From: an uncultured Spirochaetales bacterium
GTDB taxonomy: Bacteria; Spirochaetota; GWE2-31-10; CAYYKD01
Length of the DNA: 64,000 nt
Assembly (NCBI GenBank): GCA_964471825.1
Contig: CAYYKD010000003.1
Location: 69,601-133,600 of the forward strand
Direction: 5' to 3'
Position numbers and translations under genes: made by a program. Shown piece after piece: positions 5,184 to 58,387 of this stretch. A model generated the notes under the pieces. That model ran no database searches. It had not been told where the DNA came from and worked only from the letters and a program-made list of their open reading frames with translations. How positions within the stretch are numbered: position 1 is the first letter of the stretch; the number at the start of each line of letters is the position of its first letter.

Positions 5184-5663
5184 ATGAACTCATTAACAAC
5201 ATATACAGAACATAAAGATTCAAGTATAGATATTCAAGCTGATCTAAACCAAGCTTTAATAAATGAAACTATGCTGAAAGGCAAGGTCATTGGAAACCTG
5301 ACAGCTAACAGGTATCAAGTAAACATAGAGAATGACTCCTGTAAATCGTGTTCATCATTTGGGCATAAATGTTCAACAGGCGGGTGCTTAATGACTGTAG
5401 TCTCGGAGGTCTTGTTAAATCCGGGCGATGCCGTTCTTGTTGAGAATAATCCTTCAAAGAATATCCTTGGGGCAGGCCTGTTATTTCTATTTCCATTGGT
5501 CTCATTGTTCTTAGTTTATTTTTTGACCGACATTGTTTTTAATAATCAAATAGCAGCCTCTGTTACTTCAGTTATTTCATTGTTACCGTCCTACTTCTTA
5601 GTGTATATCTTATCTAAAAAGTATTTCAATAAACTACCCGGAGCATACAAATCAGATGAATAG
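5184..5663 (+). CDS. RseC/MucC-family protein (SoxR-reducing system / sigma-E positive regulator-like), Cys-rich N-terminus plus two TM helices
   Basis: CKSCSSFGHKCSTGGC cysteine cluster followed by PGDAVLVE and a hydrophobic LLFLFPLVSLFLVYFL segment. The architecture matches RseC. Its last 8 nt overlap the RSH gene. Confidence 0.5.
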   Translation: MNSLTTYTEHKDSSIDIQADLNQALINETMLKGKVIGNLTANRYQVNIENDSCKSCSSFGHKCSTGGCLMTVVSEVLLNPGDAVLVENNPSKNILGAGLLFLFPLVSLFLVYFLTDIVFNNQIAASVTSVISLLPSYFLVYILSKKYFNKLPGAYKSDE

Positions 5664-7503
5664 TATAGGTGATCTCTTAAATGGTGAAAATGATCCGGTC
5701 AAACTACTCGAACTGCTAATGAGCAGGATAAATGGAATGGCTCAGGATGATATAGAATTGATAGTAAAGGCCTACAGGTTTGCTGAGGAAAGACACAGAG
5801 GTCAGGCAAGGGCATCAGGCGAACCGTTTATCATCCACCCCCTATCAGTAGCAATAAATCTCTCTGTTATGAATGTTGATAAGAATATGATAATAACAGG
5901 TCTACTTCATGATGTGGTTGAAGATACAGAGGTAACGCTTAATGACATCTCCGAGATGTTTGGAGCAGATGTCGCGTTTCTTGTCGATGGTGTTACAAAG
6001 ATAACTAAGCTAAAATCCTCGAATTCATTTGACGCAAAGGCTGAAACTATCAGAAAAATGCTTCTTGCAATGATTGGCGATCCAAGGGTTATAATTATCA
6101 AGTTTGCCGACAAGTTGCACAATATGCGAACCCTGGGATTTCTCAGAGAGGACAAACAGAGACGGATAGCAACAGAGACACTTGAAATATATGCACCGCT
6201 TGCCGGTAAGCTGGGATTGAACACAATTAAGACTGAGCTGGAGGATCTCTCATTTAAACACCTCTTTAGGGACTCCTATGAACTAATCGATGAGACACTT
6301 AAACAGTGGAGCGTTGAATGGGAAAGCAGTGATCAGATCGTTCAGAAAAAACTAAGAGAGAAACTTATAGATGGCCGTATCCCCTTTAAGATAAAATCAA
6401 GAAACAAACATTACTACTCAATATTCAATAAGATGAGAAAGTATAACAAAAAGATTGAAGAAATATTTGATCTCCATGGTCTAAGGATAATTACAGATAC
6501 GGTTGAGAATTGTTATCAGATATTCGGGCTTGTTCACAGTCTATGGCAGCCGATACCGGGGAGATTTAAGGACTACATTGCAAATCCCAAGGAAAACGGA
6601 TATAGATCACTTCATACTACGGTTCTACTTGATAAGCGAAAGGCCGTAGAGATTCAGATCAGAACTCAGGACATGGATGAGGTAAATGAGTACGGTATTG
6701 CGGCACACTGGTACTATAAGAAAGGGGAGTCTGCTGTTCAGAGAGAGCTTGACTGGTTGAACAAACTAAAGCAGGTTCATAATGAACAACTTAGCTCAGA
6801 GGAATACTACGAGCAAATAAGAGATGAGATCTTAAAGGATCAGATATTTGTCTTTACACCTAAGGGGGATCCAATCCAGCTGCCAAAGGGTGCTACTGCG
6901 ATCGATCTTGCCTATAGAATACATACTGACATAGGTAACCGATGTAAGGGTGCAAAGGGCAATGGGAAGATTATACCTCTTGATGCACCGCTAGAGAACG
7001 GTATGATTGTTGATATACTAACCACTAAGACACCTAATCCGCGAGAATCATGGCTCTCCTTTGTTAAGACCACACATGCCCAGAGAAAGATAAGGCATGA
7101 ACTTATTCGCTATAGTGAAAAAAATGGCTATAGCGACAAACATGATAGATCTGAAAAACCGGAAAAACCGGAAAAACCGGATAAAACAGATAAATCTGAT
7201 AAAAATGACAGACTTGACAAAACCCGAACAGACCGTGATGAGTCAAGACAGGGCAATAAGAGCACTAAGAAGACAATAAATGAAACAGGTCAAGATTCTA
7301 CCGGAAAATTCAAGATAGAGGTGTTCGGTGAAAAGAATGTACTCTTTGCAGTAGCAAACTGTTGCAATCCTGCCCCATCTGATGATTGCGTTGGGCTTGT
7401 TTCCAGAGGCAGAGGGATTATTATTCATAAAAGAGGGTGTTCAAATTTAAAAAATGTAAAGGATAGGGATCTCAGACTGCTCGAGATTAAATGGGGGAAA
7501 TAA
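5656..7503 (+). CDS. rel: Bifunctional (p)ppGpp synthetase/hydrolase (RelA/SpoT homologue, RSH) with a low-complexity insertion in the C-terminal linker
   Basis: HD hydrolase motif HPLSVA...LLHDVVEDT. Synthetase domain, TGS and C-terminal ACT-like region are present. The insertion EKPEKPEKPDKTDKSDKNDRLDKT is encoded by a tandem DNA repeat. Confidence 0.85.
   Translation: MNSIGDLLNGENDPVKLLELLMSRINGMAQDDIELIVKAYRFAEERHRGQARASGEPFIIHPLSVAINLSVMNVDKNMIITGLLHDVVEDTEVTLNDISEMFGADVAFLVDGVTKITKLKSSNSFDAKAETIRKMLLAMIGDPRVIIIKFADKLHNMRTLGFLREDKQRRIATETLEIYAPLAGKLGLNTIKTELEDLSFKHLFRDSYELIDETLKQWSVEWESSDQIVQKKLREKLIDGRIPFKIKSRNKHYYSIFNKMRKYNKKIEEIFDLHGLRIITDTVENCYQIFGLVHSLWQPIPGRFKDYIANPKENGYRSLHTTVLLDKRKAVEIQIRTQDMDEVNEYGIAAHWYYKKGESAVQRELDWLNKLKQVHNEQLSSEEYYEQIRDEILKDQIFVFTPKGDPIQLPKGATAIDLAYRIHTDIGNRCKGAKGNGKIIPLDAPLENGMIVDILTTKTPNPRESWLSFVKTTHAQRKIRHELIRYSEKNGYSDKHDRSEKPEKPEKPDKTDKSDKNDRLDKTRTDRDESRQGNKSTKKTINETGQDSTGKFKIEVFGEKNVLFAVANCCNPAPSDDCVGLVSRGRGIIIHKRGCSNLKNVKDRDLRLLEIKWGK
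7153..7225 (+). repeat. In-frame tandem repeat (gaaaaaccg x3 followed by gataaa-like units) inside the RSH gene, encoding (EKP)3 and a D/K-rich linker
   Basis: gaaaaaccg at 7153-7161, 7162-7170 and 7171-7179, read directly in the sequence. Confidence 0.8.
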
Positions 7504-7504
7504 C

Positions 7505-8086
7505 ATGAAAACAGTTGTATTTTTTGCGGGCCGCTCTGAGGCCGATGCATTATTAAATCACTCAGGTATTAAATTTAACAAGGTCTCAGGTGATTGCTAT
7601 ATTGATAGTGAGGGAAAAATATTCATCTATATAACCGGAATCGGGGTTGATGCTGTAAATAGTTTCTTTAAGAAACATGATTTAAAGATTGACAACAAGA
7701 ATCTATACATCAAGGCCGGGTCCTGCGGCATCATAAACAGAAAATTTGAAATAATGACACCTCTCTATCCTTCAAGTGTCTCTGACGCCATAGAGACAAA
7801 TAGGACTATTGAGTTGCAAAGAGATTCTAAGACCGGTGCAGATAATATTAAACTAATAAGTACTACACAACCAATAAATAATGAGATACTTAGAGATCAG
7901 TTTGGCAATTATGACCTTGTTGATATGGAGTCATATACTATTGCCGGTCTTATTCCTTCGATCAGGATAATACTTGTAGGTACAGATCTTGCAGACAGTA
8001 ATTCTAAGATTGATTTTATGATGAATATTAAGAACGCATCTGACAAACTACGGGATGCAATACTTCAGATGATAAAAAAACGATAA
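7505..8086 (+). CDS. Nucleoside phosphorylase-I family protein (MTA/SAH nucleosidase- or futalosine hydrolase-like)
   Basis: YIKAGSCGII and VDMESYTIAGL resemble PNP_UDP_1 / MTA-nucleosidase motifs. Starts 2 nt after the RSH stop. Confidence 0.45.
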   Translation: MKTVVFFAGRSEADALLNHSGIKFNKVSGDCYIDSEGKIFIYITGIGVDAVNSFFKKHDLKIDNKNLYIKAGSCGIINRKFEIMTPLYPSSVSDAIETNRTIELQRDSKTGADNIKLISTTQPINNEILRDQFGNYDLVDMESYTIAGLIPSIRIILVGTDLADSNSKIDFMMNIKNASDKLRDAILQMIKKR

Positions 8087-8112
8087 AGATAACGATAACG
8101 ATAAAGATAATC
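8083..8112. repeat. Tandem hexamer repeat gataa(a/c) x~5 beginning at the stop codon of the upstream gene
   Basis: cgataaagataacgataacgataaagataatc. Confidence 0.7.
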
Positions 8113-8143
8113 AAAAATATGAATAAAAAATAAGAAACAGAAA

Positions 8144-9841
8144 ATGATATTACGCTTATTAAAGAAATTATTTACAGGCAGATTTACAATAAATGCAACG
8201 CTTCTAATTGCGGTATTCTCACTTCTCTCGAGAGTTCTCGGTCTACTAAGATCAACGCTGATGGCTGCATTCTACGGAGCAACTGAGAGTCAGGGGTTTG
8301 CGGATTGCTATGCTGTTAGCTTTAAACTTCCTGATATCATATTCAATCTAATTGTATCCGGTGTTATATCAGTTGTACTTGTCCCATACTTCTCTTCACT
8401 TTTAGTGGCACACAGAGACAGAGACAGAGGCACGGATAAAGATACAGATAGTGGCACAGATAGAGATAGTGAAAAACAAAGAAAGATTGAAAAAGAGCGA
8501 AAGATTGAAAAAGAGGCCGAGTTGGACGCAATCAACAGGGGCTGTTCCAATTTTTTAAATATTTTTTTTATCCTGCTTGCGGTTTTTAATATTGCAGCCT
8601 ACATATTTACCCCATATTTCGTAAGGGTTCATCTGGTTCCGGGTTGGACAGACCAGGTAAATATAGAGTTGACTATTAAGATGACAAGGATTCTGCTTCT
8701 TCAGGTCTTATTTATGACAATGTCAGGTGTGTTTAGTTCATATCTGAATTCGCTTGAGAAGTTTTTCTATTACAGTGTCGCGTTATTATCATACAATATA
8801 GGGATAATTCTCGGTATAACATTATTTGGCAAATTTATGAGTATAGAGGGTGTTGCGTGGGGTGCGGTTCTTGGTAGTTTCATGCAGTTCTTTATTCAAT
8901 TCATAGGTGCAAGGATAAGCGGTTTTAAGTATCACTTTAGACTTCCAATAGTCAATAGGGAGATTGTTCATCTATTTGGCATCGCAGTCCCCAGAATTAT
9001 AGCACTCGGCGGAGAGCAGTTTGTTAAGTTTCAGCTTGTTAACTTTGGATCATTTATCTTTACGGGAGCGATATTTATATTCGAGTCAGCTGAGAATTTT
9101 GGAATGGTTCCCTATGGAATGATAGCAGTCAGCATATCTGTTACAGTTTTTCCTTTGTTTAGCAAGTTATTTGCCAGGGGTGAGTTCAATAGGGCGTTCT
9201 ATGCACTTTTTCACCATATTAGAATGGCACTATTCTACATGGTATTTATATCGATCTGTATTATAGTCTATAGGGTACAGTTAATCGATCTCCTGATCGG
9301 CTATAACAGATTTACTGCGAATGACATCAAACTAACCGCTGATGCACTTGCCTATTTTATGATAGGCATCCCATTTTTTTCACTCTCAATAATCATAGTT
9401 AGATATCTCTATGCACAGAAGATCTCCATCGCACCAATGATTTTTACACTGATCTCTGTTGTTGTAACAGTATTCTCTGCAAAGGCACTTATCCCGACAC
9501 TAAGCGTATCAGCACTCTCGGCAGGCCGTTCGGCAGGCTATGTTGTGCAGTTTGTTTTGATGATCTCCATGATAGTTATCCACACAGTTACTAAGTACAG
9601 ACCAATAACGATCCCATACGGCCAGATCAGACAGATCTTATTAATTATCCTTGCAAACGGGGTTATTCTATTAGGAGGTATATACCTTGAAAAATTTGCA
9701 CAGATAAATATCGCCGGCAAGCTTTCCCCATTGCTTGAGGGGTTGATTGGTGCTGTCGTCCTATCCATCTCATATTACTTGATAACAGCCCTGATGGGTA
9801 TTGAGGACTCAAAAAAACTGCTAAAAAAATTCACGGGTTAA
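8144..9841 (+). CDS. murJ: Lipid II flippase MurJ (murein biosynthesis integral membrane protein) with a ~50-aa charged low-complexity loop insertion
   Basis: N-terminal LLSRVLGLLRSTLMAAFYGAT...FKLPDIIFNLIV matches the MurJ signature. Multi-pass TM protein of 565 aa. Insertion HRDRDRGTDKDTDSGTDRDSEKQRKIEKERKIEKEAE. Confidence 0.75.
   Translation: MILRLLKKLFTGRFTINATLLIAVFSLLSRVLGLLRSTLMAAFYGATESQGFADCYAVSFKLPDIIFNLIVSGVISVVLVPYFSSLLVAHRDRDRGTDKDTDSGTDRDSEKQRKIEKERKIEKEAELDAINRGCSNFLNIFFILLAVFNIAAYIFTPYFVRVHLVPGWTDQVNIELTIKMTRILLLQVLFMTMSGVFSSYLNSLEKFFYYSVALLSYNIGIILGITLFGKFMSIEGVAWGAVLGSFMQFFIQFIGARISGFKYHFRLPIVNREIVHLFGIAVPRIIALGGEQFVKFQLVNFGSFIFTGAIFIFESAENFGMVPYGMIAVSISVTVFPLFSKLFARGEFNRAFYALFHHIRMALFYMVFISICIIVYRVQLIDLLIGYNRFTANDIKLTADALAYFMIGIPFFSLSIIIVRYLYAQKISIAPMIFTLISVVVTVFSAKALIPTLSVSALSAGRSAGYVVQFVLMISMIVIHTVTKYRPITIPYGQIRQILLIILANGVILLGGIYLEKFAQINIAGKLSPLLEGLIGAVVLSISYYLITALMGIEDSKKLLKKFTG
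8410..8520 (+). repeat. GA-rich microsatellite-like tract (gacaga x3, then an 18-bp tandem duplication aaagattgaaaaagag(cg/gc)) encoding the MurJ loop insertion
   Basis: Read directly: cacagagacagagacagagg ... aaagattgaaaaagagcgaaagattgaaaaagagg. Confidence 0.75.
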
Positions 9842-27947: not shown

Positions 27948-28199
27948 CTTATGTTGCCTCTAATTTTTTGATGTTACTATACAAAGATATTTTAAATGTG
28001 TCAATAAATTATTTAAGTAAAAGAAGGTATATACATCTTTTATCCTGTGCTTGAAAAGTAATTGTCGGGTAAAAGTGTAGTTTGAATTTCAAGGGAATGT
28101 TCTATAAGGGAAGGAAATGATATATAGGGATTGAATAAACAATTAAGGATTGAATAGGCGATTGGAGTATAGATGTGAGTTGAATAGATGAGGGATTGT

Positions 28200-28281
28200 G
28201 GGGGACAACTTATGCCTGTCTAATTTTGTGAGAAATATCAATTGACATATACAATTATCATCAAACATAGGCTGTCCCTCC
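28200..28281. repeat. REP-like element, inverted pair (full copy gggggacaacttatgcctgtcta in reverse orientation; partner cataggctgtccctcc), ~45-nt spacer
   Basis: The reverse complement of the left copy is TAGACAGGCATAAGTTGTCCCCC, matching the family consensus seen at four other loci. Confidence 0.6.
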
Positions 28282-28350
28282 TTATCATAAGCCGACAAAA
28301 AACAGAAATCGTTTCTCATGGGTTATGGTTTTAAGATGAAAAAGTTTTCT

Positions 28351-31215: not shown

Positions 31216-34200
31216 ATGAAACAAGGGCAAGGTGTAACTTCATTTTTGAAAATTTTCTCTATTGTTGTTATTGCTCTGATAATATTTATGGCTATACTTA
31301 TTTTTATTGCCGCAAAGAATATCACACCGATTGCACGAAGGTTAATTAATAGAGAGCTGCACTATCAAAGGGCATCATTTAATCCGGCATCACTTGAAAT
31401 ATCTCTGGATAATTTAACGCTTGGGATAGATATTGACAATACTTTTTTTTCTGTTTCAAAAATCACTGCAAGGCTATCTATTCGAGACATTGTTAGAGGC
31501 AAACTGAGATTCTCATCAATTGCTGCAGAGTCCCCTGTGTTGAAAGTGTACAGAACAGTCGATGGTAAATTTGTCTTTCCCGACTTCATTTCACCGGAAA
31601 AAATTAAAGGATCAACGCAATTCAATATTATTTCAGGGAGTTCCTTTGAGAATATCAAGGTGAGTAATGGTCGAGTAGTCTCAGATAATGGTCTGGTAAT
31701 ACTTGACGAACTTGTTATCTCAATACCCGGTTTTAGACCCGACAATATTAAGGTTGAGCCTGTCATATCAGGGAAACTATACAATAATGTGTTTAGGATA
31801 TCTGGAAACTCTGAGGTTAAACAGGATTTAATTATCAACACATTTGCAGCTGATTTGAGTAAATTTAAGTTGCTTGACATCTATAATCTATTTAACTTTA
31901 GTCTGCCCTATACTATCAGCTCAGGAGAGCTATCCGGAACAATATATTTTAAACACATTTCAAAGAAAGGCAGGGTCAATTGGAGCGTAGGTGGAACAAT
32001 CTCACTTCGCAATCTCTCTATTGTAGAAGGTGTAGAGCGGTCGCGATTTTTGAAAAATATAGAAGGTGAATTAAAGGGTTTCAATTATAATGGAACGGAC
32101 AACCTATTTTCTGCTGAAATGATTAATGTACGCAAAGGTGAGTGGCATCATCAAATTAAAATACCAAATAAGACTGTTAAATCTCTGAAATCACAGGAGC
32201 CTTTTTTCTATAAGATTGAAATGCTTGCACTCTCAAATATTGATCTGAGGTATATTGACGAGCTTACAGACTTTAGCGAAACACTTCGGGTTGAATCATT
32301 GAAAATTAGTTCACTGTCAAATATTCGATCAGGGTTGTCAGATGTGATTTTGAAAATAAGGGGCAATAGGTTTGATGAGCTAGTACTTAACGGCCAGATC
32401 AATCAGGCTGATGGTGTATATATATTAAATAGCGGCACTCTTAGGAAACTCACTCTTGACGGTTATAGGCCACTTCTTAAGCGAATTACAACTGTTAGAG
32501 GGGGACTTATAGATATTAATAAGCTCAGTGGCTCCTTGGATAGAAATGGTTTTCAGTTTAATACAGAGGTTGATCTTAGGTCGCTTGTTATACCGGGAAA
32601 GAACACAGAGATATATATAGACAGACTATGGTGTCAAATTGAGAGAGAGCGTGATGGTTCATTAATTGCCGGGCAGGTGATTGTTTCTGAGCTTGATCCG
32701 GCAATTCCAAACATAAGGAATATTAGTTTCAGTATTAATGGTAAGCCGGAAGGCTATAGAATGGGAGTGGTAAAAAAGAGATCCGGTCTAATTGGTAGTG
32801 TTGATGAAAAGCAGATGCAGAGCTACATTATGGACGATTTTCTTACAGTTACCAATATCAAGATATCTGCTCTCCATGATGGGAGATCACTTAGTATTGA
32901 GTCAGACTCCATTGACATGAATGTAAAGGCTACTATTGATTCAGAACCAACGCTTCAATTTGCAGGGAGTGCCGAGATGTCTATTAATGGTCTGCTTCTA
33001 AGAGCTGACCAACGGATAGGACTAAAGATCGACAGGGCAAAACTAACTATTAAAAAAATAAACTTCTTTCCAATGGATATCTTTATTTCGGAGGGAACGA
33101 TAAATAGTCCTCTAATATCCGCAGGGGTAAAGGCTGACAATTCGTTTGAACTGTTCTCATTTCTAGAGCCATTTAAGAAATCAAAGCCTGCATCGAATAT
33201 CACAGAAATAAGAAGCATGGATAATAAGTTCACAATAAACAAACTAAATATTGCTGATGGGACTATAGTCTTTAATGATAGAACGACCGCTCCTAACTTT
33301 TTAGCCACGGTAGATAAGATAGAGGGTGTTATTCAGGACTTTCCCTCGGTAACACAAAGCACGGGCAGATATCTGCTTTCAGGAAAATATGACGGACTAA
33401 CTGATGTCTATCTGGATGGAACAATAAATCCATCAGGACACAAACTGAAGATATCCTGTTCTGATTTAAAATTGCCCGGTCTATCATCATATTTTATCAG
33501 ATATCTCGGAAATGAGGTAATCTCCGGATCATCAAATATTAACATGGATGTCCGGATCGATAATAAGGGGTTTTCTGTAGACAATAGTATAGAGTTGTAC
33601 TCTGTATCGGCTAAAAAAATAAACGGAAATATCAATCTTGAGAGGCTTCTGAGAATTATCGAGGATAGCTCAGGAGTGATTAAGCTGAATATTCCAATCA
33701 AGAGTATAGATGGCGATATAAAAGTTGATTATAGGAAAAACTTTTTTGATCTATTTATGCAGTCCATTGATAAGCCTGTGGCTGGTGTATCCGGTGTGGT
33801 TGGCTTTATTCCCGATAATATATATGATATTATACTCTTTAAGGATGGAATGTCGGAAATTCAATCTATTGACGGAGTGTTTAGTGATAAAATAGTGTCA
33901 TCATTTAATGTAAAATCAAAATACTTCCTTATTGAGAGTTTTGTTGATCAGAAAACTGATAGGGATGAAATTAGAAATAGTAAATTTATGCGTGTCTATG
34001 ATCTCTACTCAATACAGGCTAAGGATCAGAGGCCGGCATTAATTGAAGTCTATAGACATTTTGATATGGTTTTTAATTATGATTATTTAAGTGACAATGA
34101 GTTCAAGAAATCAATAATTGAAAACATTAAACTTGACTATTCGGATTACACAAACCTTTCTCAGAAAAGATCAGAGGAGATTGCCAAGGTGATAACCAGC

Positions 34201-34342: not shown

Positions 34343-34626
34343 AGTTTAAAAAAAAGTTTCGTTTTTGTTTGTTACTTCTTAGTTTGTAAGAATCTTTGTA
34401 ATAAATTGTTATTACTATTTATTATTACTACTATGATAGTAAATATAACACAGCCGGTTTGAAAAGTCAATATATTTTAGAAAAAAAATTTTTGTTTTTT
34501 CAGATGTTCGGAGTGTACCGGAATTGTGTATTGTTTATTCTTTGAAATGTGCATAGAAATGTGCATAATTTGACGGAAAGAATTTAGATGTATTCTGTGC
34601 TATGTTTTGATAATCTGTACTGATCA

Positions 34627-34641
34627 ACCATAGGTTGTCCC
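34627..34641 (+). repeat. REP-like element, single partial copy (ccataggttgtcccc)
   Basis: Matches the 3' half of the family consensus. Confidence 0.5.
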
Positions 34642-34948
34642 CACTAATCATGTTCCGGCAAAATATGTAACTTAAAAAAACTCTATTTTAAAAAACTTCA
34701 TTTTAAAAAAACTCCTTTGATGTGTAAGTAATATTTAGAGAATCTGGCAGAAGTAATGATTTTTGCCGGATTCTAATTCTAACTGGAGCTTTATGTCAGA
34801 GAATTTGCAGGTGAGAGCGTAATAAGTCAATATATTCCCTTATTATTAGCGTATTAAATAAAAATTTTTATATAATTTATTGAGTTATAATTCAATATTT
34901 GATATATTAGTTTAATTGAAGTATTAAAACATTATAAAGGTAGTACAG

Positions 34949-37099
34949 GTGAAAATAGTACAGGTGAAAATAAAGAAACAAATTCTTTTGCTTATTACAG
35001 TTTTGACAATTTTGACAATCTGTGTAAACATAGCGGCAGATGAATATGATTTACAGAGCAGCTTGTTAAACGGAAGTTCACAGAATAGTACAACTACTAA
35101 TGTGTCATCTGATGAGATGATATACTTTACTGTGGGTAAGCTCCGATACTACAGAACAATAATGCTGGTTGTAGACCCATCAACAGGGGTGATACTTGCA
35201 AGTTCAGGCGGTGCAGTTAGTTTCTATGGCTATAATAAACTTGAGGGGATGAATATCTCCGAAATAAATACTCTTAATCAGTATCAGATAGCTGATGAAA
35301 TGAATAAAGCGGTAAATGAAAAAAGGAATTTTTTTCATTTCAAGCATAGGCTTGCAGATAGACGGATTGTGGATGTTCATGTGAATTCATACCCGATGAT
35401 TTATAAAGATAGACCAGTACTTGTTTCCCGTGTTATGGATGTGTCTGATCAAATTTTTTCTGAATCGACACACTCGGTTATTAAATATATGATGTTTATC
35501 GCATTATTTCTCATAATTATTATCTTAATTGTTTTCATGGTGTATATTAGGAACAATGAAAAAAAATATCGTCTGCTCTTTGAAAACATGGTTGAGGGGT
35601 TTGCACTTCATGAGATAATCTTTGACAAGGAGAATAATCCTGTAGACTATAGATTCATCGATATCAATCCCCGTTTTGAGGAGTTGACCGGTTTAAAACG
35701 GGAGACTGTCCTGGGTAGATCAGTTAAAGAGATGCTTCCTGAAACTGAGACCTATTGGATAGAGAACTACTCAAAAGTTGCCTTGAGCGGAAAGCCGCTC
35801 TCTTTTGAGAACTATTCTCAGGGGCTTAATAAATACTTTAGCTGCAATGCGTTTTCTCCATCAAGGGGGAAGTTTGCTGTAATTTTCTCTGATATTACTG
35901 ATAATAAAATTAAAGAACTTGAGATCATCAAGTCAAGGGATGAAGCACAGAAAGCAAATAAGACCAAGTCCGATTTTCTTGCAAATATGAATCATGAGAT
36001 ACGGACGCCTATTCATAGTATAATCGGTTTTTCAGATGCACTGCTCAAAACAGATCTCAGTTCTAATCAGAGGGATTTTGCAACAAATATAGTGATGGCC
36101 TCCTCTTCATTAATGGGGCTGATAAATGATATATTTGACCTTACCTCAGTAGAAAATGACACACTCATATTACATCCGGATAAAATAAAGATAACTCAAT
36201 TAATTGAGTCTGTTGTTGAATTATTGAGATATAAGGCGGTGGTAAAAGGGTTAAATCTAACATTTTTCAATAATTTACAGGATGATTTTACGATTATGGC
36301 TGACCCCGTGCGATTGAGACAGGTTCTAATCAATCTATTGGCAAATGCAGTTAAGTTTACCGATAATGGCGGTGTATCTATAGAATGTGCTGTTAACATC
36401 CTTGATGAAAAACTGGCGGCATTTACAATATCTGTAACTGATACAGGTGTAGGGATAGATGAGTCACACAGGCCCAGGCTCTATGAGGCCTTCTATCAGA
36501 TAGAGAATGAAAAGTCTAGAAAGCATGGCGGAACAGGGGTCGGGCTGCCGATTTCAGATAGAATTTTGAAGTTAATGGGCAGCAGTCTTGAATATGAAAG
36601 TAAGGTTGGCAGAGGTTCAAGATTCTATTTTACAATTACAACTGAATACTACACAGAGACAGTCAGGGAAAATCGGGATAGAAATAACCTGAAAGAGATT
36701 AGTGCTAATAAGCAGAGTTCATTTGATGGTACTATACTTGTGGTTGAAGATGAGAAGATCAACATGATTCTTATTAAATTTTACATCTCGCATCTCTTAC
36801 CCAATGCACAGATAATAGAGGCCTATAATGGACTTGAGGCAGTCAATCAAGCGAAGGAGTTTCATCCTGAGCTTATTCTTATGGATCTTAGGATGCCTGA
36901 GATGGATGGAATAGCTGCAACAATAAAGATTCGTGAGTTATTTCCGGAGCATCCTCCGATCATTGCAGTAACTGCAGATGTAACCGATGCAGTAAAAGAG
37001 GAGTGTTTTAATGCAGGGATGAATGATTACTACACAAAACCATTAAATGAAGAAGAGATGGGTGAAATAATAAATAAATATCTGTTTAAGACTATCTAA
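34949..37099 (+). CDS. Hybrid sensor histidine kinase (periplasmic sensor, PAS, HisKA, HATPase_c, C-terminal receiver)
   Basis: H-box MNHEIRTPIHSIIGF. G-boxes TDTGVGI / GGTGVGLPIS. Receiver ILVVEDEKINM...LILMDLRMPEMDG. The start region overlaps a 16-bp direct repeat, so an alternative start lies at 34964. Confidence 0.8.
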   Translation: MKIVQVKIKKQILLLITVLTILTICVNIAADEYDLQSSLLNGSSQNSTTTNVSSDEMIYFTVGKLRYYRTIMLVVDPSTGVILASSGGAVSFYGYNKLEGMNISEINTLNQYQIADEMNKAVNEKRNFFHFKHRLADRRIVDVHVNSYPMIYKDRPVLVSRVMDVSDQIFSESTHSVIKYMMFIALFLIIIILIVFMVYIRNNEKKYRLLFENMVEGFALHEIIFDKENNPVDYRFIDINPRFEELTGLKRETVLGRSVKEMLPETETYWIENYSKVALSGKPLSFENYSQGLNKYFSCNAFSPSRGKFAVIFSDITDNKIKELEIIKSRDEAQKANKTKSDFLANMNHEIRTPIHSIIGFSDALLKTDLSSNQRDFATNIVMASSSLMGLINDIFDLTSVENDTLILHPDKIKITQLIESVVELLRYKAVVKGLNLTFFNNLQDDFTIMADPVRLRQVLINLLANAVKFTDNGGVSIECAVNILDEKLAAFTISVTDTGVGIDESHRPRLYEAFYQIENEKSRKHGGTGVGLPISDRILKLMGSSLEYESKVGRGSRFYFTITTEYYTETVRENRDRNNLKEISANKQSSFDGTILVVEDEKINMILIKFYISHLLPNAQIIEAYNGLEAVNQAKEFHPELILMDLRMPEMDGIAATIKIRELFPEHPPIIAVTADVTDAVKEECFNAGMNDYYTKPLNEEEMGEIINKYLFKTI

Positions 37100-38148
37100 T
37101 GTTTGATAAAACATCACAAAAGAGAGTATGTATGATAAAAGAGTTGATAAATGATTTAGTATCTGTTTTTAAACCTGAGATTTACCATGGTTTTTTAAAA
37201 AAAGGCAAGTTTTTTGAAGGTTGGTATTACAAAATAACTGATAGGAGCGGGAAGCGAACAGCAGTGTTTATTCCGGGTATATCTAAATATACGAAAGACA
37301 GGCATTCATTTATTCAGTTTTTTCATACAGAACAGTTAAATAGAGATTATTTTCGGTTTGAGAGTGATAGTTTTAAGTCTGACTATAACCATCTTGGTGT
37401 CACTATAGACAGATCCTCATTCAGTTCGGATTCTATACAGGTAGAGATTGATCAAGGCAAGAAGATATCTGGAGATTTTAAGTTTACCAATCTGATTAGA
37501 TGGCCTGTTCTGTTATTTAGCCCCGGAATTATGGGTTTCTTTGGTGTTCTACCATTTATGGAGTGTTACTATGATCTCATCTCAACAAAGGGAGCTGTAA
37601 CCGGCAAGCTCAAAATTGATGATCAAATAATAGACTTTGATGGCGGCTCTGTCTACATAGAGAAAAACTGGGGTTCATCATTTCCGTCAGAGTGGATTTG
37701 GCTTCAGGCTAACAGGTTTAATACGGAGACTGTGGGTATAACTTTTTCATATGCGACAATTCCATTCCTGGGCACAAGTTTTAAGGGGCTGGTTTGCGGT
37801 CTGTCAATCGGTAAGAAGTTCTATAAGTTTGCAACCTACAATGGCGGCAAGGTCTTAAGTTTAGATATCAGCGATCACTCTGTAAAAGTACTTCTTAGAA
37901 AGGGCAGTCTCTATCTTGAAATTGAAGCTCAAAGGATTGATGGTGCATATTTGCCGTATCCGACCATAACAGGTATGAACGGCACTATCTATGAAAGTAT
38001 AAGCGGTAATATGAAAGCATTGCTATACAGACTTAAGGGCGGATCCAGGCAGGTGATCTTTGAAGGCGTTAGTGATAATTGCGGTGTTGAGATAACCATG
38101 AAAAAAAATAATGGCTTTTCATGGGATAAATTAACTAAGCAGGGTTAG
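37099..38148 (+). CDS. Tocopherol-cyclase-like family protein (PF14249-like), function unknown in bacteria
   Basis: N-terminal YHGFLKKGKFFEGWYYKITD resembles the tocopherol cyclase PHSGYHF...RRFFEGWYF signature. Translationally coupled to the kinase (TAATG). Confidence 0.45.
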   Translation: MFDKTSQKRVCMIKELINDLVSVFKPEIYHGFLKKGKFFEGWYYKITDRSGKRTAVFIPGISKYTKDRHSFIQFFHTEQLNRDYFRFESDSFKSDYNHLGVTIDRSSFSSDSIQVEIDQGKKISGDFKFTNLIRWPVLLFSPGIMGFFGVLPFMECYYDLISTKGAVTGKLKIDDQIIDFDGGSVYIEKNWGSSFPSEWIWLQANRFNTETVGITFSYATIPFLGTSFKGLVCGLSIGKKFYKFATYNGGKVLSLDISDHSVKVLLRKGSLYLEIEAQRIDGAYLPYPTITGMNGTIYESISGNMKALLYRLKGGSRQVIFEGVSDNCGVEITMKKNNGFSWDKLTKQG

Positions 38149-38198
38149 GTTGTCCCTAATGGGTTAAATCAACTAATGAGGGATAGGTTGTCCCTAAT
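38146..38198 (+). repeat. REP-like elements, two direct partial copies (ggg(t/a)taggttgtccctaat) 37 nt apart between convergent genes
   Basis: Copies at 38146-38160 and 38183-38198. The first overlaps the stop codon of the upstream gene. Confidence 0.55.
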
Positions 38199-39528
38199 AT
38201 TCCTTGTTGGTTTTGAAGACCGGGATTTTGTCAAATATTGGATTGAGCTGGCATGGGGTTTTGTATAACTTCAGATTAAAGTCTGTATTTAGAAAATGGT
38301 CTTCATATACGCTATAGACTGTGTCTTTTATAAGACAATTTGAGTCAGCATTGAGCCTGTTTATATTTACCGTAGGATTTCTATAGTCCGATGATGCAGA
38401 CCATGATTCTTCAGTATTAAGATAGTCAGATCTATATATAAACTCATTTTCAAAATTGCCGCCCTGAGCGTGACTCTTTCCTGATTTAAATCCAAAATCC
38501 TGACCTGAAATAATCACAGATTTAAATCCAAGCTGACCTATAATCCTAAGAGTGTTAAAAAAAACTGTTCCTTCAGCCGGGCTCTTTAGAATGGGTTGAG
38601 ATCTAAAAAGCTCATTGCCGAGACCATTACAGTAGTCATAGAAATAGAAGTCCTGTTTGAGATTTAATAATGAACTGTTAATGCAGGGGTGTGCTAGAAC
38701 TATATATCTATGCTTTAGTAAATAGAGATGATAGAGGGAGCCATAGCCCGGATCAGCTAATACAATATAGTCTGCAAATATCTGTGCGGATTCTAAAAAT
38801 CTAACAGCGGATGGAAGTGCAAAGATAGGGATTTTCGCAGAGAGTTCTCTGATGTACTCTATGTTTAGTTCTAGACTTCCGCCGGATGAACAGATCAACG
38901 CAACGCTCTCACTCTCTATATTGTCATTTATATTATTGTTTTTTGAGTTGTTCTTATCAGTATGCAGTAATTTGGGGTGATTGCCTGTTATTTGAATTTT
39001 CTGCATATTTCTTGTATAGTTTCTTTGCATCAGATCGTCAAATCCAACCCCCGTATTTAGAGAAAGCCCTGTTTTGTAGAGAATTGATTTTATACGCTGA
39101 ATGTATGGAATATAGAACTCATGATTGTGTTTTAAAAGCTCAGGCCATACAACAACAGATATATCAGATGAATGTATATTGTTGTCTACAAGGTAGCGTT
39201 CAAGTTCCTCATGAGTATTTAGATATACAATGCTCTTAGATTGAATTGATTCTTCGAATTTTTCGGGCGTGCAGGAAATCACTTTTTTATTGATACCAAG
39301 TAGTATCTTATTGATGTACTCTGCACCGCAGACTGTGATCACTGTGTCCTTTAGAACGCCAAGCGATTTGATATATCTATCAGCCTCTGATATGGGATCA
39401 TATAGTGAATATAGCAATTTGTCATTATATGAATATGTTATAAAGCCTTTTTTACCAATAATTGATTTGTATTTTAACTGATCACTTTTCATATATCTAT
39501 ATATACCAATTAAACTGAAATATTTCAA
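38194..39528 (-). CDS. Hypothetical protein (444 aa), possibly DUF115/MptE-like. Contains an Asn-rich low-complexity stretch.
   Basis: Long ORF with good coding periodicity. No confident motif match. Confidence 0.4.
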   Translation of the reverse strand: MKYFSLIGIYRYMKSDQLKYKSIIGKKGFITYSYNDKLLYSLYDPISEADRYIKSLGVLKDTVITVCGAEYINKILLGINKKVISCTPEKFEESIQSKSIVYLNTHEELERYLVDNNIHSSDISVVVWPELLKHNHEFYIPYIQRIKSILYKTGLSLNTGVGFDDLMQRNYTRNMQKIQITGNHPKLLHTDKNNSKNNNINDNIESESVALICSSGGSLELNIEYIRELSAKIPIFALPSAVRFLESAQIFADYIVLADPGYGSLYHLYLLKHRYIVLAHPCINSSLLNLKQDFYFYDYCNGLGNELFRSQPILKSPAEGTVFFNTLRIIGQLGFKSVIISGQDFGFKSGKSHAQGGNFENEFIYRSDYLNTEESWSASSDYRNPTVNINRLNADSNCLIKDTVYSVYEDHFLNTDFNLKLYKTPCQLNPIFDKIPVFKTNKEY

Positions 39529-47561: not shown

Positions 47562-48455
47562 ATGAATATAAATAGAAATAAAAATATTAAAATAATAGTA
47601 AAAAAACTTTTTTCTATAGCTCTAGTAGTTATAGGTATGACAGTTATACCGGCCTGTCAGACGGTTAAAGGTGTTTATAATTATGCAAGGGAGAATCACA
47701 GCGTTAAACTGACAATTACAGAGGATAGCAAGCAGGTTAGAAGGGGTCGCTTGAGCGGAACTTTAATAAGTCCTGCCTATTTTGGCGGAGTTATTTCAAC
47801 GGATTCATCAGGTGATCAAGTTTTGATTGTTGATGAGTTTGGATATTTTACTAACTGGTTTGACGGATGGACTCAAGCCCTGCATGAAGCCGGCGGCTCA
47901 GTAAAGATAGAATTAAACAAGGACAGATCGTTTAACATTGTTGTAAGGGAGGAACTCTTTGTAGGTGAAATAAAAACCGCACAGACACGCTATGCCGATC
48001 TATACTACAAGGGTGATAGAGCAAATGAGTTGTTGAGGAATAGAATAGCAAGAATCAAGTCGGTAAATGAGTATCTCGTTGAATATGGAATGCCTATGTT
48101 CTTTAGTTCAGCTATTTACCCTCCTGTTTTTTCTACATCTAAGAGTGATAAAAAGCAGAAGACATTTTTTGAGGCAACCCGTTCACTACTGTTTCCTGAG
48201 ATGTATCCATTCGGGGCCGTTAAGGTGGACTACCAGGCAAAAAGTACCTATGAGCTTGCCGATTCAATACTCTGGAATAGACAGTATTCAGAGAAGATGT
48301 TTCCTGAACACCTTAGGGATGTGCGAAATGGCGGTTCACTCTATAAGGACTATGAGGAATCAATAGAGTTGTTCTATGTTTTTTACAATCTGGATTATTT
48401 TTTGAGAATGTTAGTTTTAAATACACCATTAAATACACCATTAAATTCACAATGA
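47562..48455 (+). CDS. Hypothetical lipoprotein. C-terminus has tandem LNTP repeat.
   Basis: Signal peptide with lipobox TVIPAC. 12-bp tandem DNA repeat taaatacaccat x2 at the 3' end. Confidence 0.4.
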   Translation: MNINRNKNIKIIVKKLFSIALVVIGMTVIPACQTVKGVYNYARENHSVKLTITEDSKQVRRGRLSGTLISPAYFGGVISTDSSGDQVLIVDEFGYFTNWFDGWTQALHEAGGSVKIELNKDRSFNIVVREELFVGEIKTAQTRYADLYYKGDRANELLRNRIARIKSVNEYLVEYGMPMFFSSAIYPPVFSTSKSDKKQKTFFEATRSLLFPEMYPFGAVKVDYQAKSTYELADSILWNRQYSEKMFPEHLRDVRNGGSLYKDYEESIELFYVFYNLDYFLRMLVLNTPLNTPLNSQ

Positions 48456-48550
48456 TAGCGAATAAATAATCATAGAGATTGCTAACTACAAGTGAGCCTT
48501 TAAATATGTTTGAAAAACAGAAGTATAATATTAATATTTAATCTGCCAAG

Positions 48551-49030
48551 CTAATTGTAGGCTATTTTTTTTATGATTGTAATAATCCTGTTGTTTATAT
48601 GATACTGTCCAGAAAACTTAAATTCTCCCATTTCAAGACATAATTTTAGTTTAACAGGTAATTCATTAATTTTTTTAATATATTCTTCCACCTTTTCTTT
48701 GATCTTAAGTAAAACGCTCTTGAAACGGCCACGCCAGACTGTACCGAATCGGTTAAATCTTCTGTTAAATCGAATTGAGAAGGACTGCTTAATCCATTGC
48801 ATTACAACTGATATATCTGTTTTACCGATTGTTTGAATTACTATCTGAAACTCATCTTTAAGAATGATGAAATTTTCAATTATAATATCGAATTTGATCA
48901 TTGCCTCTTCCATAACTTCCATAAAAATTGATTGTGTTTCTTCTGAGCAGAGTTTTTGAGCTGTTTCCGGAACAACGCTTGATTTTACAAAATATGTTCC
49001 GCCTTCTACTTTTTCTCGGTTTTTTCTCAT
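48551..49030 (-). CDS. IS200/IS605-family (Y1/HuH, RAYT-like) transposase homologue with HuH histidines substituted. Probably an inactivated or domesticated derivative.
   Basis: Alignable by eye to IS200 TnpA over its whole length: DIIIENFIILKDEFQIVIQ vs ...IIEMQTDKDHIHILAD (H-I-H replaced by E-F-Q), MQWIKQSFSIRFNRRF vs FIKTAKGRSSRILRQEF, TVWRGRF vs TLWTNSCF, and a retained Tyr in the C-terminal helix KVEEYIKKINE vs VVKQYIENQ. Confidence 0.5.
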   Translation of the reverse strand: MRKNREKVEGGTYFVKSSVVPETAQKLCSEETQSIFMEVMEEAMIKFDIIIENFIILKDEFQIVIQTIGKTDISVVMQWIKQSFSIRFNRRFNRFGTVWRGRFKSVLLKIKEKVEEYIKKINELPVKLKLCLEMGEFKFSGQYHINNRIITIIKKIAYN

Positions 49031-49145
49031 AATCTGTCCTTATAATTTGGATTTTTAATATATCACTTAGTTAAAACGATTTTTTTGATTTATTATTTAT
49101 GGAATTGACAAAAGAGTTACAATTTTTTTTTGAAGAATATCAAGC

Positions 49146-49210
49146 GGGACAACCTATTGCCGTTGATAGTGGTTTTTTCACCCAAGACTAGACTGGCATA
49201 GGTTGTCCCC
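49146..49210. repeat. REP-like element, inverted pair (gggacaacctattgcc ... gactagactggcataggttgtcccc) with ~24-nt loop, ~115 bp from the IS200-like gene
   Basis: The arms are reverse-complementary over ~15/16 nt. The right arm is the full 25-nt family consensus. Confidence 0.65.
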
Positions 49211-49389
49211 TACAGATAGTACACAGCCTAGAGTGACAATTCAATTCTTTATCATATTGTAGAGGCTATTGTAGAGAATTAATATTTAGAAATCATATAC
49301 ACAAAACCTTCCACTAAAAATTTATTAAAGACTAATAAAAATATCTTTATAAATTGCATTAATTTAATTTTTTTGTTAAATCTTTCTAT

Positions 49390-51381
49390 ATGGGAAACAA
49401 AAAGCTAAGCCGCTCACTATTACAGTACGATGTTATTACTCTTATTATGATCTATATTATTGTATTTCTAATGTTTGAGGTCTTAATAAAGAATCTTCTT
49501 GTCAATTATAAAGTTGATAGTCTAAACGAGAATCTTGTGTCGCTACAATTGGACTTCTTTGACGCTGTAACCTCACTTGAGGAGAAGTCAATTCTAAGTT
49601 ATGACGAATATATTAGAAATATTATCGACTATTCTAAAAGGTCAACACTCAGCAGACTGAAATATGATAACAGTATTGTTGCAATAGTATTTCCTGATGA
49701 GTATGGGTTAACCACATTTGGCTCAAAGAATAAGTTTGATAGAGTGTTAAACAAAGACAGCTATGGGTTAATCCATCGAGTTCTGTTTAACGGTGATTCA
49801 AATTCCAAGTATTCTTCAAACAAGGGCTCAAAAAACATAAAAAAAAGAGACAAATATATAGAGTTAAATGCTGACAGCTCAGAATATATTGCTATAGCTC
49901 AGATCTCAACGAAGGGGATAAAGTCTGGTTTGGAGCGTAATTCAGATGAGGATATTTACCCGATATTTATTGTTGGTGATAAAAGAGGCGATTTCTTTTA
50001 TATAATTAATCTGGCAGAGATAATATTTATATTCTGGCTTACTGTAGTATTTTTAATATTAGGTACCTTTAAGTTTCTTGCAACCAAGCGATCAACAGTA
50101 CAGATCTACGAATTCAGTAATATGTTGAATGAAGAATCTGAAAATATAACTCAGAAAGGTATAGTTGGCGGTTCATTAAGAAAGATAGAAACAGAGTTTG
50201 TTGAGATAGAGAATCTTAATACAGCATCAGCATCCCTAAGCAATTCCCTTAAAGAGTTAAGAAGAATAGTACAGGGTACAACTACAGAGGAATTTTTTAT
50301 AGGAACAATAACAAATAATAAGAGTATTACTGAACAGCATGATGTTTTTGTTACAGTTATGTTTCTCGATATAAAGGGATTTACGGGTATATCAGAGAAG
50401 CACAAATCAAATGCAATGGTTATTGGTAATACAATTTTTAGTCATGTAGGTAAGATAATCAAGGAACATGGAGGACAGATAAGAAAGCTCCTGGGTGATG
50501 CCGCACTAATAACATTTAAAAATCCACCCGACACCGGTTCAAATTCTGCACTAAATGCGGTTTCTGCCGGCATAAGGATACTAAACGATGTCTCTACGAT
50601 ATGTGACAAGCTTAATGAGTTATTTAACCCTGAAAAATCATCTGATCTCATGATAGATTTCAATTTTAGAATTGGGCTTGATTCGGGTACAATTGGAGAG
50701 GGGCTATACGGTACAGAGGATAATTTTGAGTATGGTATAATCGGTGATGCAGTGAATACGGCATCTAGATTTGAGTCATTAAACAAGCAGTACAATACAA
50801 ATATTTTAGTATCTGATAATACCTATAATGAACTTATAAGTGTGATTGTTTCAATATATGGTATAAAAAATGAGGCAAAATCCATAGAGACGAAGATCGC
50901 GGACACTCTAAAAGTGCGGTGGTTCTGTGTTGATACGGCCAGACCAAAGGGTAAGATTAAGCCAAATAAGATATACACGCTTTCCTATTTACAAAAAGAC
51001 AACCTAAGGTTGCTCGGACAAGGAGAATGCTTTAACATTGAGATTTTTGGAGGTTTCTCAGAACTGCTTGAAAGATTTCATCAGAGCATTCAACTATGGA
51101 AAAAAACAGTTGAACCGGAAAGTGATGCTGCTCTAGTAAACGCTGCTCTAGTAAATGCAAAAAAAGAATGGTCAAATATTGCAAAACATTTTGCTCAATA
51201 CATGATAGACAAAAACTTTAAAGTAGCAGAGCCGTTTCTAAAACTTATATTAAACTATCAGGAGTTCAATCGACTTCAAGCAGACTATGAAGGTTGGAAA
51301 GATAGGGAGATATATGACCTAAAAATTCCATCGTCTGATTGGATTAGCAACCCCTACGGATGCAGGGAGTTGGATAAATGA
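49390..51381 (+). CDS. Membrane-anchored class III adenylate/guanylate cyclase with periplasmic sensor region and ~190-aa C-terminal extension
   Basis: Two TM segments flank a ~170-aa extracytoplasmic region. Cyclase motif VFVTVMFLDIKGFTGISE...LGDAALITF...IGDAVNTASR. Confidence 0.75.
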   Translation: MGNKKLSRSLLQYDVITLIMIYIIVFLMFEVLIKNLLVNYKVDSLNENLVSLQLDFFDAVTSLEEKSILSYDEYIRNIIDYSKRSTLSRLKYDNSIVAIVFPDEYGLTTFGSKNKFDRVLNKDSYGLIHRVLFNGDSNSKYSSNKGSKNIKKRDKYIELNADSSEYIAIAQISTKGIKSGLERNSDEDIYPIFIVGDKRGDFFYIINLAEIIFIFWLTVVFLILGTFKFLATKRSTVQIYEFSNMLNEESENITQKGIVGGSLRKIETEFVEIENLNTASASLSNSLKELRRIVQGTTTEEFFIGTITNNKSITEQHDVFVTVMFLDIKGFTGISEKHKSNAMVIGNTIFSHVGKIIKEHGGQIRKLLGDAALITFKNPPDTGSNSALNAVSAGIRILNDVSTICDKLNELFNPEKSSDLMIDFNFRIGLDSGTIGEGLYGTEDNFEYGIIGDAVNTASRFESLNKQYNTNILVSDNTYNELISVIVSIYGIKNEAKSIETKIADTLKVRWFCVDTARPKGKIKPNKIYTLSYLQKDNLRLLGQGECFNIEIFGGFSELLERFHQSIQLWKKTVEPESDAALVNAALVNAKKEWSNIAKHFAQYMIDKNFKVAEPFLKLILNYQEFNRLQADYEGWKDREIYDLKIPSSDWISNPYGCRELDK

Positions 51382-58085: not shown

Positions 58086-58292
58086 AATGTATGTAATTAT
58101 TTCTTTATTATCAATATTTATTTTTCATAACAATGTAAGTATGATCGAATTTTATTTAAAAATCAACTCTTAATATCAAAACGGATTGTTGTATTCTACA
58201 AAACATTTATAAATTGTGAATGGGTATCAATTTTGCTGAGCTTTTTTGCTCTATCGGGAAAAATGCTTTATTTTTCTAAATAATGTTTCGAA

Positions 58293-58355
58293 GGACAACC
58301 TAAGGTCGTTGACAATGTCACATCACACATGACTAGACAGGCATAGGTTGTCCCC
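58293..58355. repeat. REP-like element, inverted pair (ggacaacctaagg ... gactagacaggcataggttgtcccc)
   Basis: The right arm is identical to the 49186-49210 copy except for one nt. The left arm is reverse-complementary over ~10 nt. Confidence 0.65.
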
Positions 58356-58387
58356 ATTGGCTTACGCCTTATGAATAAATTAATAAT

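Follow-up and report, generated by a model that had tools for sequence, protein, structure and literature searches.

A transposase-like gene and its hairpin

The 64,000-nucleotide stretch of DNA analysed here (the window) belongs to contig CAYYKD010000003.1 of an uncultured Spirochaetales bacterium. Its minus strand contains at 48551-49030 an open reading frame (ORF) for a protein of 159 amino acids with the Y1/HUH (His-hydrophobic-His) fold of the tyrosine transposases associated with repetitive extragenic palindromes (REPs), known as RAYTs. All the catalytic residues are substituted, as judged from homology, an AlphaFold2 model, Foldseek, residue mapping and the ratio of nonsynonymous to synonymous substitution rates (dN/dS). 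A Shine-Dalgarno sequence (AAGGA, 49037-49041, minus strand) lies 6 nt 5' of the ATG, its AGG core being kept in every aligned copy of the gene, and ~45 nt 5' of the ATG there is a AATCGTTTT box (49073-49081, minus strand) with TCGTT invariant in 10 of 10 aligned copies, a candidate promoter or operator element. Farther upstream, a hairpin unit resembling a REPIN (a doublet of REPs forming a hairpin) occupies 49142-49213 of the same strand; read on the gene strand it consists of GGGGACAACCTA, a partly conserved loop of ~42 nt and TAGGTTGTCCCG, and it was delimited by arm search, folding, repeat scan and copy alignment. The hairpin with its 12-bp stem, a leader of ~115 nt and the ORF, which is the sole gene, form a unit of ~0.66-0.75 kb that is repeated elsewhere.

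The Pfam domain Y1_Tnp (PF01797) was found in the protein with 32 bits (gathering cut-off 23, E 1.5e-7). The best-scoring NCBIfam model was REP_Tyr_transpos, with 51.5 bits against a model cut-off of 80, so that NCBI's own rule would not call the ORF RayT, and the IS200 model gave 23.6 bits, under its cut-off of 55. In sequence searches of the PDB, the single protein and a 14-member profile had no significant match (only insignificant ones to Cmr4), and the sole match of an 87-sequence profile was 4er8 (E 3.7e-11). The AlphaFold2 run with 10 aligned sequences was unusable (predicted local distance difference test, pLDDT, of 50) and the one with 87 sequences was used instead, with a pLDDT of 90.1 and a predicted template modelling (TM) score of 0.84. 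The top PDB match of this model in Foldseek was also 4er8_A, the E. coli TnpA_REP (YafM) in complex with a REP hairpin (E 3e-9, TM 0.79/0.76, root mean square deviation 2.3 Å over 149 columns), a link for which the 87-sequence profile or the structure model was needed. The TnpA proteins of IS200, IS608 and ISDra2 reached a TM of ~0.56. The protein is therefore a Y1/HUH-fold homologue of the RAYT type. An initial annotation, made from the sequence by eye, had likened it to the IS200/IS605 TnpA of ISHp608; the Y1_Tnp homology stands, with the Pfam domain above threshold and a RAYT fold at TM 0.79, but the closest solved relative is the RAYT 4ER8 and not ISHp608.

Among 1.84 billion representative proteins a profile search detected 5928 relatives at E<=0.001 and only 4 at E<=1e-30, indicating that the immediate family is tiny. 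The relatives next beyond it are 25-33% identical. PADLOC gave no match to the protein and Rfam none around the ORF, and nothing was found in plasmid and phage collections by tblastn with the protein.

Active site and DNA-contact residues

The published active site of TnpA_REP comprises H59, H61, Y115, N119, H123 and E161 (PMC3479197). We mapped these residues by adding E. coli TnpA_REP to the family alignment, profile-based and anchored on structure, with 10 full-length family members and 77 relatives. H59 corresponds to E60 of the window protein and H61 to Q62, E and Q being present in 10 of 10 family members at positions where 67 of the 77 relatives have H. The catalytic Y115 falls on K120 (in the family K once, I eight times and L once; Y in 64/77 relatives), the metal ligand N119 on L124 (L in 10/10; N in 67/77 relatives) and H123 on L128 (L in 10/10; A in 56/77 relatives). 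The alignment is gapless from R97/R102 through K122/K127, with P120 of TnpA_REP on P125 of the window protein. The HuH is thus replaced by E60-F61-Q62 (EFQ) in all 10 full-length members, as the initial annotation had noticed. Its view that the catalytic Tyr was retained came from a register off by three and does not hold: Y115 aligns to K120, and Y117, three positions before the catalytic one, is replaced by F in 8 of the 10 paralogues. There is no family-specific invariant Tyr near the active site, Y13 being common to active relatives too. The HUH/Tyr centre is fully dismantled, with HuH, Tyr and Asn ligand gone, and the protein should be catalytically dead, as had been supposed for a copy lacking HuH; its inability to cleave is what we infer from these substitutions.

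The hairpin is gripped in TnpA_REP by the positively charged helix C and the loop that follows. R97, which makes a base-specific contact, corresponds to R102 of the window protein and K81 to K81, both invariant in the family, and K91 to R or K at position 91. Actually, the best conserved stretch of the whole family is F88-S105, where F88, N89, F92, N93, R94, G96, T97, W99, R102, F103, K104 and S105 are invariant. By this mapping, the DNA-gripping surface is retained in the dead RAYT family.

Selection on the coding sequence

The ORF is intact, with 154-159 amino acids, in 10 copies despite saturated synonymous divergence. Among seven full-length copies dN/dS was 0.06-0.22, with dS >1 (saturated) for most pairs, and the young pair formed by loci L001 and L002 (dS 0.10) had a dN/dS of 0.136. 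E60 and Q62 are themselves invariant across the family. These values indicate that the gene is not decaying, and it is under strong purifying selection; the decaying RAYT that the initial annotation had considered can be discarded. Furthermore, an independent JGI assembly made from this sample contains the window locus with 99.3% identity, which excludes a sequencing or frame error as the cause of the missing HuH.

The hairpin beside the gene and elsewhere in the window

The core of the gene-linked hairpin is a perfect 12-nt inverted pair (arms at 49146-49157 and 49198-49209, with 40 nt between them) that ends 114 nt upstream of the ATG, in agreement with the REPIN-like pair at ~115 bp previously annotated. 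It marks the 5' homology edge common to all the copies. Folded as single-stranded DNA, the two strands gave -15.5 and -16.2 kcal/mol (z = -4.3 and -4.8), with shuffled sequences averaging ~-6.5 kcal/mol and none of 200 being as stable. The gene-proximal arm TAGGTTGTCCC is present in the 15 of 15 loci with 5' sequence, even though synonymous sites are saturated, and 11 of its 12 bases are invariant in 10 aligned copies. The divergent copy L003/L021 has one mismatch in this arm, and the far arm is absent in two loci. A promoter and terminator scan detected nothing distinctive on the gene strand 5' of the ATG and no terminator, and no T-run follows the hairpin.

The pair belongs to a dispersed repeat family, as had been annotated: the 12-mer TAGGTTGTCCCC has 7 sites in the window at no more than one mismatch, compared with 0.14 expected. 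With a hairpin profile, nhmmer gave 65.4 bits for the gene-linked hairpin and 66.7 bits for a solo hairpin without gene at 58291-58359 (minus strand), with both arms and the conserved loop and only 14.7 bits in the other orientation. A second solo hairpin at 28198-28283 (plus strand, 55.9 bits), in a divergent intergenic region, shows some decay, its arms having two mismatches and its loop being longer, and one further gene-less full unit was found with the profile in L016. The much better score of the solo units in one orientation indicates that conservation extends from the arms to the loop, TGCCTGTCTAaTCATG...CCTATCAaCAAC. By eye, no target duplication was seen beside the solo units. Both of those in the window (58291-58359 and 28198-28283) have the features of REPINs, two inverted short repeats as a hairpin, dispersed and intergenic. 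The hairpin is REPIN-like, with a low copy number in the sequence available (~2 full solo units per 64 kb).

There are also arm fragments in the window, which like the solo units are all intergenic. A half unit with only the right arm (TAGGTTGTCCCC) is located at 34621-34646 (plus strand, nhmmer 16 bits, E 0.002). At 38146-38195 (plus strand) the arm TAGGTTGTCCCT occurs twice in direct orientation, at a distance of 38 nt and precisely between the ends of the convergent genes 37099-38148 (plus) and 38194-39528 (minus); each of these arms holds a small TAGG...CCTA palindrome. A 12-mer-like site at 32095, intragenic and with 2 mismatches, was treated as chance.

A unit repeated at unrelated sites

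A word-indexed search of 5.8 billion proteins detected only 14 family members, from two species and one sample. When one genome per species was scanned, 13 loci were found, all of them in the metagenome-assembled genome (MAG) CAZSQU01, assembly GCA_964608985.1, an uncultured Spirochaetales bacterium, and many at contig ends. Proteins P0002, P0003, P0004, P0005 and P0010 are each encoded in a different gene neighbourhood and all come from the sample of the window, JGI 3300020048 (SRR7760390). By their tetranucleotide profiles, loci L014, L016, L019 and L147 group with the window (r = 0.978-0.983) and the MAG loci with each other. We refer to the organism of the window, with at least 5 copies, as species A and to its sister species, MAG CAZSQU01, with 10 different left flanks, as species B. 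The additional copies that the initial annotation had thought worth searching for do exist, bringing the totals to at least 5 in species A and at least 10 in species B, all with EFQ and with the gene-proximal hairpin arm wherever 5' sequence is available.

Homology between any two loci is limited to the unit, from the left hairpin arm (49210-49217 in the window) to the stop codon or just past it. No two loci share flanks and the neighbouring genes share no function, the next downstream gene being co-oriented in 5 of 6 loci. Over 215 nt that span the leader and the beginning of the ORF, identities are 83-92% among nine species-B copies, 68-82% among the species-A copies and 63-71% between species. 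Since all copies carry EFQ, the unit has multiplied after catalysis was lost. Four copies (P0011-P0014) are broken by deletions or frameshifts, and a young cluster together with broken copies is the birth-and-death pattern typical of mobile elements. By these alignments, two related uncultured spirochaetes carry a discrete gene-plus-hairpin unit at no fewer than 15 unrelated sites. Of the domesticated regulator or binding protein tied to the repeats that had been proposed initially, the link to the hairpin was confirmed, but with at least 15 unrelated sites this is not a single-copy host gene kept by vertical descent.

Species A and B share a 3.8-kb syntenic block of four genes (window 5271-9052 and L001 1-3497) with ~73% nucleotide and ~79% amino-acid identity. 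The synteny stops abruptly beside the Y1-like copy of the MAG in L001, before the copy, which suggests a rearrangement near the element.

Ends of the unit

The unit of species B and of L147 has a further ~90 nt on the left side of the hairpin and ~35 nt past the stop codon, and is 738-747 bp long. These extended units terminate in imperfect inverted repeats of ~25 bp starting with GGGGYGC (GGGGYGC...TTTTGGCAA). The terminal repeats of L001 were reached by 1 of 2000 shuffled sequences and those of L147 by 48 of 2000, those of L002 being weaker. The left segment of the window copy has diverged. A weak, possible left flanking repeat CATATTGTAGAGGCTATTGTAG at 49253-49275 pairs there with a tentative right one, CTACAAGTGAGCCTTTAAATATG, at 48485-48507, 44-66 nt past the stop codon. 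This alignment was reached or exceeded in 93 of 2000 shuffles (p about 0.05), and the pair may be the counterpart of the terminal inverted repeats of the sister species. In L147 a 6-bp direct repeat, TAATCC, abuts both ends. The left flanks of the copies have no common short motif; IS200/IS605 elements insert 3' of a specific tetra- or pentanucleotide and leave no target duplication. The sequence GGCAGATTAAAT just past the window stop codon resembles the left end of the sister-species units; by eye it is in the wrong orientation and does not extend, and we took it as chance. A tandem 10-nt repeat, TATTGTAGAG twice with 12-nt spacing (49255-49276, plus strand), is just outside the hairpin and overlaps the weak left flanking repeat.

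Comparison with known mobile elements

The window protein shares with the RAYTs and TnpA_REP the fold, which is its best structural match, the ~60 residues between the HuH and Tyr positions, the W-x-x-R-F and P-V-K motifs and the base-contacting Arg, and its gene is likewise tied to a palindromic repeat that is also dispersed in the genome. However, HuH, Tyr and the Asn ligand are missing. Moreover, the gene is multi-copy (at least 5 and at least 10 per genome), whereas the criterion for RAYTs is a single copy inherited vertically. The hairpin is found only on the 5' side, at a fixed distance, and is copied with the gene, a different inverted repeat flanking some copies, and the solo hairpins are few, with no large REPIN population. 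Having neither the catalytic residues nor a single copy, the protein is not a RAYT in the strict sense.

The resemblance to IS200/IS605 elements lies in the size of the unit (~0.7 kb), with one small Y1-fold ORF matching PF01797 and a left-end hairpin, and in the occurrence of a discrete common unit in several copies that occupy unrelated sites, with birth-and-death and no consistent target duplication. IS200/IS605 elements, however, encode a Y1 transposase that is active and an obligate dimer, and the window protein has no catalytic residues; the modelled fold matches the monomeric TnpA_REP better (TM 0.79) than the dimeric TnpA proteins (~0.56); there is no right-end hairpin, those elements having subterminal hairpins at both ends, and L001, L002 and L147 have terminal inverted repeats of ~25 bp, which IS200/IS605 elements lack; and the copies within a genome are old, with 68-82% identity in the species of the window. 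The hairpins are similar to REPINs in being units of ~66 nt with two inverted 12-nt arms, intergenic, dispersed and linked to a RAYT-type gene, but differ in their low copy number over the sequence available, REPINs being kept as populations of tens to hundreds by a cognate active RAYT, in their conserved and directional loop and in that the linked protein is catalytically dead, and hence cannot be the enzyme that mobilises them.

The TnpB-derived TldR repressors and the truncated inhibitor transposases have kept nucleic-acid recognition, lost catalysis and been retained by selection. The same would apply to the window protein, a transposon protein that keeps recognition without catalysis under selection. 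Those are, however, host regulators at fixed loci or products of active elements, whereas the unit described here has gone on multiplying with no gene other than that of the dead protein. Mobile insertion cassettes (MICs) and miniature inverted-repeat transposable elements (MITEs) lack a transposase, have terminal inverted repeats, may carry a passenger gene and are mobilised in trans. Unlike in these, there is no consistent target duplication here, no matching autonomous element was identified, and the passenger, which has a hairpin of its own, is related to transposases. We classify the unit as a pseudo-transposase module of IS200 size, lacking the active Y1 enzyme and the two subterminal hairpins of that group.

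Possible function and alternative explanations

The interpretation that we favour, and to which we would give an even chance of being correct, is that of a non-autonomous RAYT/IS200-like module in which the pseudo-transposase binds the hairpin and cleavage is supplied in trans. The protein would bind the GGGGACAACCTA/TAGGTTGTCCCC hairpin extruded in single-stranded DNA, probably as TnpA_REP does, both at the 5' end of its own unit and at the gene-less solo hairpins. Being unable to cut DNA, it could act as the end-recognition or the regulatory subunit of a non-autonomous element, while cleavage and strand transfer would come from an enzyme encoded elsewhere, and it might be kept either because it is needed at the end of the element or as the regulator of the element. 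Hairpin binding, inability to cleave and mobilisation in trans are all conditional parts of this proposal, which we infer from the residues, the hairpins and the distribution of the copies.

Several observations weigh against this interpretation. Mobility follows from the distribution of the copies rather than from an observed insertion. Neither the window nor ~220 kb of related loci contained a gene for an active Y1 or any other transposase, which leaves the enzyme acting in trans a hypothesis. A second hairpin on the 3' side, as in IS200/IS605, is missing, and no copy of the 12-mer was found 3' of the gene. Only some copies have clear terminal inverted repeats, those of the window copy being weak, and there is no consistent target-site duplication, the 6-bp TAATCC of L147 being absent in L001 and L002. 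The assignment of the loci to two genomes is based on tetranucleotide similarity and one MAG. Finally, a metal ion could still be bound by E60 and Q62, which are invariant.

The dead RAYT could alternatively be a regulator domesticated by the host, a DNA binder specific for sequence or structure whose copies are an ordinary paralogous family, acting as a transcription factor or autorepressor with the hairpins as operators or shielding the hairpins against an active RAYT. This is a real though minor possibility. Strong purifying selection even between old paralogues, the operator-like invariance of the gene-proximal arm and the AATCGTTT box just 5' of the gene and the co-orientation of the downstream gene in 5 of 6 loci all speak for such a regulator, and there are precedents in the nuclease-dead TnpB-derived TldR repressors and in Tn5 Inh and the KP product of the P element, both truncated transposases with a dominant-negative effect. 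On the other hand, the sharp common borders with unrelated flanks, the young cluster of nine copies, the several broken copies, the contigs that break at copies, the terminal inverted repeats and the absence of a shared function among the neighbours describe an element rather than a regulon. Actually, a host regulator would have the same binding activity as the module that we favour and both explanations overlap. The unit could also be a cassette of the MIC or MITE type, moved by a DDE transposase that is encoded elsewhere and acts on the terminal inverted repeats; the dead RAYT and its hairpin would be passengers without a part in the movement. The imperfect ~25-bp repeats (GGGGYGC) are placed exactly at both borders of the sister-species copies and of L147, and TAATCC abuts both ends of the latter. 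We consider this unlikely, given that L001 and L002 have no target-site duplication, that the terminal repeats are weak or absent in four copies of the window species, that no gene-less derivatives of the termini were found in the window and that the solo hairpins have spread without them; besides, a passive passenger would not keep a dN/dS of ~0.1 in young copies.

Another alternative is that the protein is still an enzyme, with E60 and Q62 as metal ligands and another nucleophile (Tyr, Ser, Thr or water), and the unit an autonomous insertion sequence of a new type. Four conserved catalytic positions have nevertheless changed together, two of them to Leu, the Tyr position is unconstrained (K, I or L), no family-specific invariant Tyr is found near the site (Y117 is mostly F and Y13 occurs also in active relatives) and 22 of 137 representative relatives have lost both motifs independently, which points to repeated inactivation rather than one invention. 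Even if the unit has multiplied after the loss of HuH and Tyr and carries no other gene, E60 and Q62 are invariant and not drifting, and HUQ variants are active in some viral Rep proteins, this explanation seems quite unlikely to us. A decaying RAYT/IS200 pseudogene, or an artefact of sequencing or frame behind the missing HuH, is very improbable. The catalytic residues are certainly absent and such sequences were taken as non-functional in an earlier survey (PMC6006769), but the ORF is intact in 10 copies at saturated dS with dN/dS of 0.06-0.22, the same EFQ is present in all the copies and an independent assembly matches at 99.3%. Thus, decay is contradicted by the data, while the other explanations differ mainly in who benefits from the unit and in what moves it.

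Going beyond the non-autonomous module, the unit could represent a new kind of mobile element whose sole gene is a Y1-fold pseudo-transposase without HUH or Tyr, still multiplying and under purifying selection, a tentative proposal to which we give a minor chance. If it were true, either the dead protein would be an end-recognition subunit for a nuclease acting in trans or the Y1 fold would have evolved a way of moving DNA without HUH, and the 22 of 137 relatives lacking the motifs would be a widespread and overlooked functional class, not junk.

Relatives without catalytic motifs

RAYTs and their REPs and REPINs are a long-standing puzzle, since how they move and why they are retained are unclear. 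We surveyed 137 representative relatives (among P0017-P0162) covering both motifs. HuH and Tyr were both present in 96 of them and both absent in 22, HuH only was absent in 10 and Tyr only in 9. The joint loss is ~3 times more frequent than the ~7 cases expected under independence, and inactive RAYT-like proteins may be a recurrent class. P0054 and P0123 have S-x-E instead of HuH, the former being a protein of 432 amino acids with a long C-terminal extension. Two distant Y1-like proteins (~30% identity), P0017 and P0022, have lost HuH and Tyr independently and kept an upstream hairpin. That of P0017 (L144 3881-3910) is located 95-120 nt upstream of the ATG and its arms, GGACCTGTCCCC and GGGACAGCC, resemble those of the window hairpin with a compensatory A-T to G-C double change. 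The hairpin of P0022 (L145 101-140), ~135 nt upstream of the ATG, is unrelated.

A phylogenomic survey dropped 202 of 924 sequences without both motifs as probably non-functional (PMC6006769), and our literature search found no paper treating Y1 proteins without HuH and Tyr as functional. The family described here is a clean counter-example to discarding such sequences, in which the catalytic centre is gone and the protein is strongly conserved, linked to a hairpin and spreading. It would also represent a natural separation of hairpin recognition from catalysis, and provides a testable protein-DNA pair, 159 amino acids and a 66-nt hairpin, with which to study functions of the RAYT fold other than cleavage. 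Like the nuclease-dead derivatives of TnpB, dead Y1 proteins may serve as regulators or specificity factors. With 14 proteins among 5.8 billion, from two species and one sample, this is a very narrow family and its direct biological reach is small.

An unrelated palindrome and the neighbouring genes

A scan of metagenome DNA with GGACAACCTA-N30-60-TAGGTTGTCC was swamped by an unrelated palindrome and says nothing about the hairpin family of the window. This palindrome of ~100 nt (ACCGACGTTTCGGGACAACCTATCGGTCCCATCTTCAAGGG..., ACCGACGTTTCGGGACAACCTATCGGTCCCATCTTCAAGGGTCAAGAA...) appears in at least 120 stretches of JGI contigs (L024-L143, for instance L027 1305-1372), shares only a GGGACAACCTAT core with the window hairpin and has a mean GC content of ~41%. 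Among the matches listed, no Y1 gene was found in the 622 kb around it, and it looks like an unrelated foldback or MITE-like family.

The gene convergent with the window ORF (47562-48455, plus strand) codes for 297 amino acids without a Pfam domain, and at E<=1e-10 it had no homologue but itself among 5.8 billion proteins. Its 3' end contains a perfect tandem repeat of 12 nt, TTAAATACACCA twice, at 48417-48440. The divergent neighbour (49390-51381, plus strand) codes for a protein of 663 amino acids with a class III nucleotide cyclase domain (Guanylate_cyc, 62 bits); its PycC-like matches in PADLOC (best E 4.4e-17) probably reflect generic cyclase homology.

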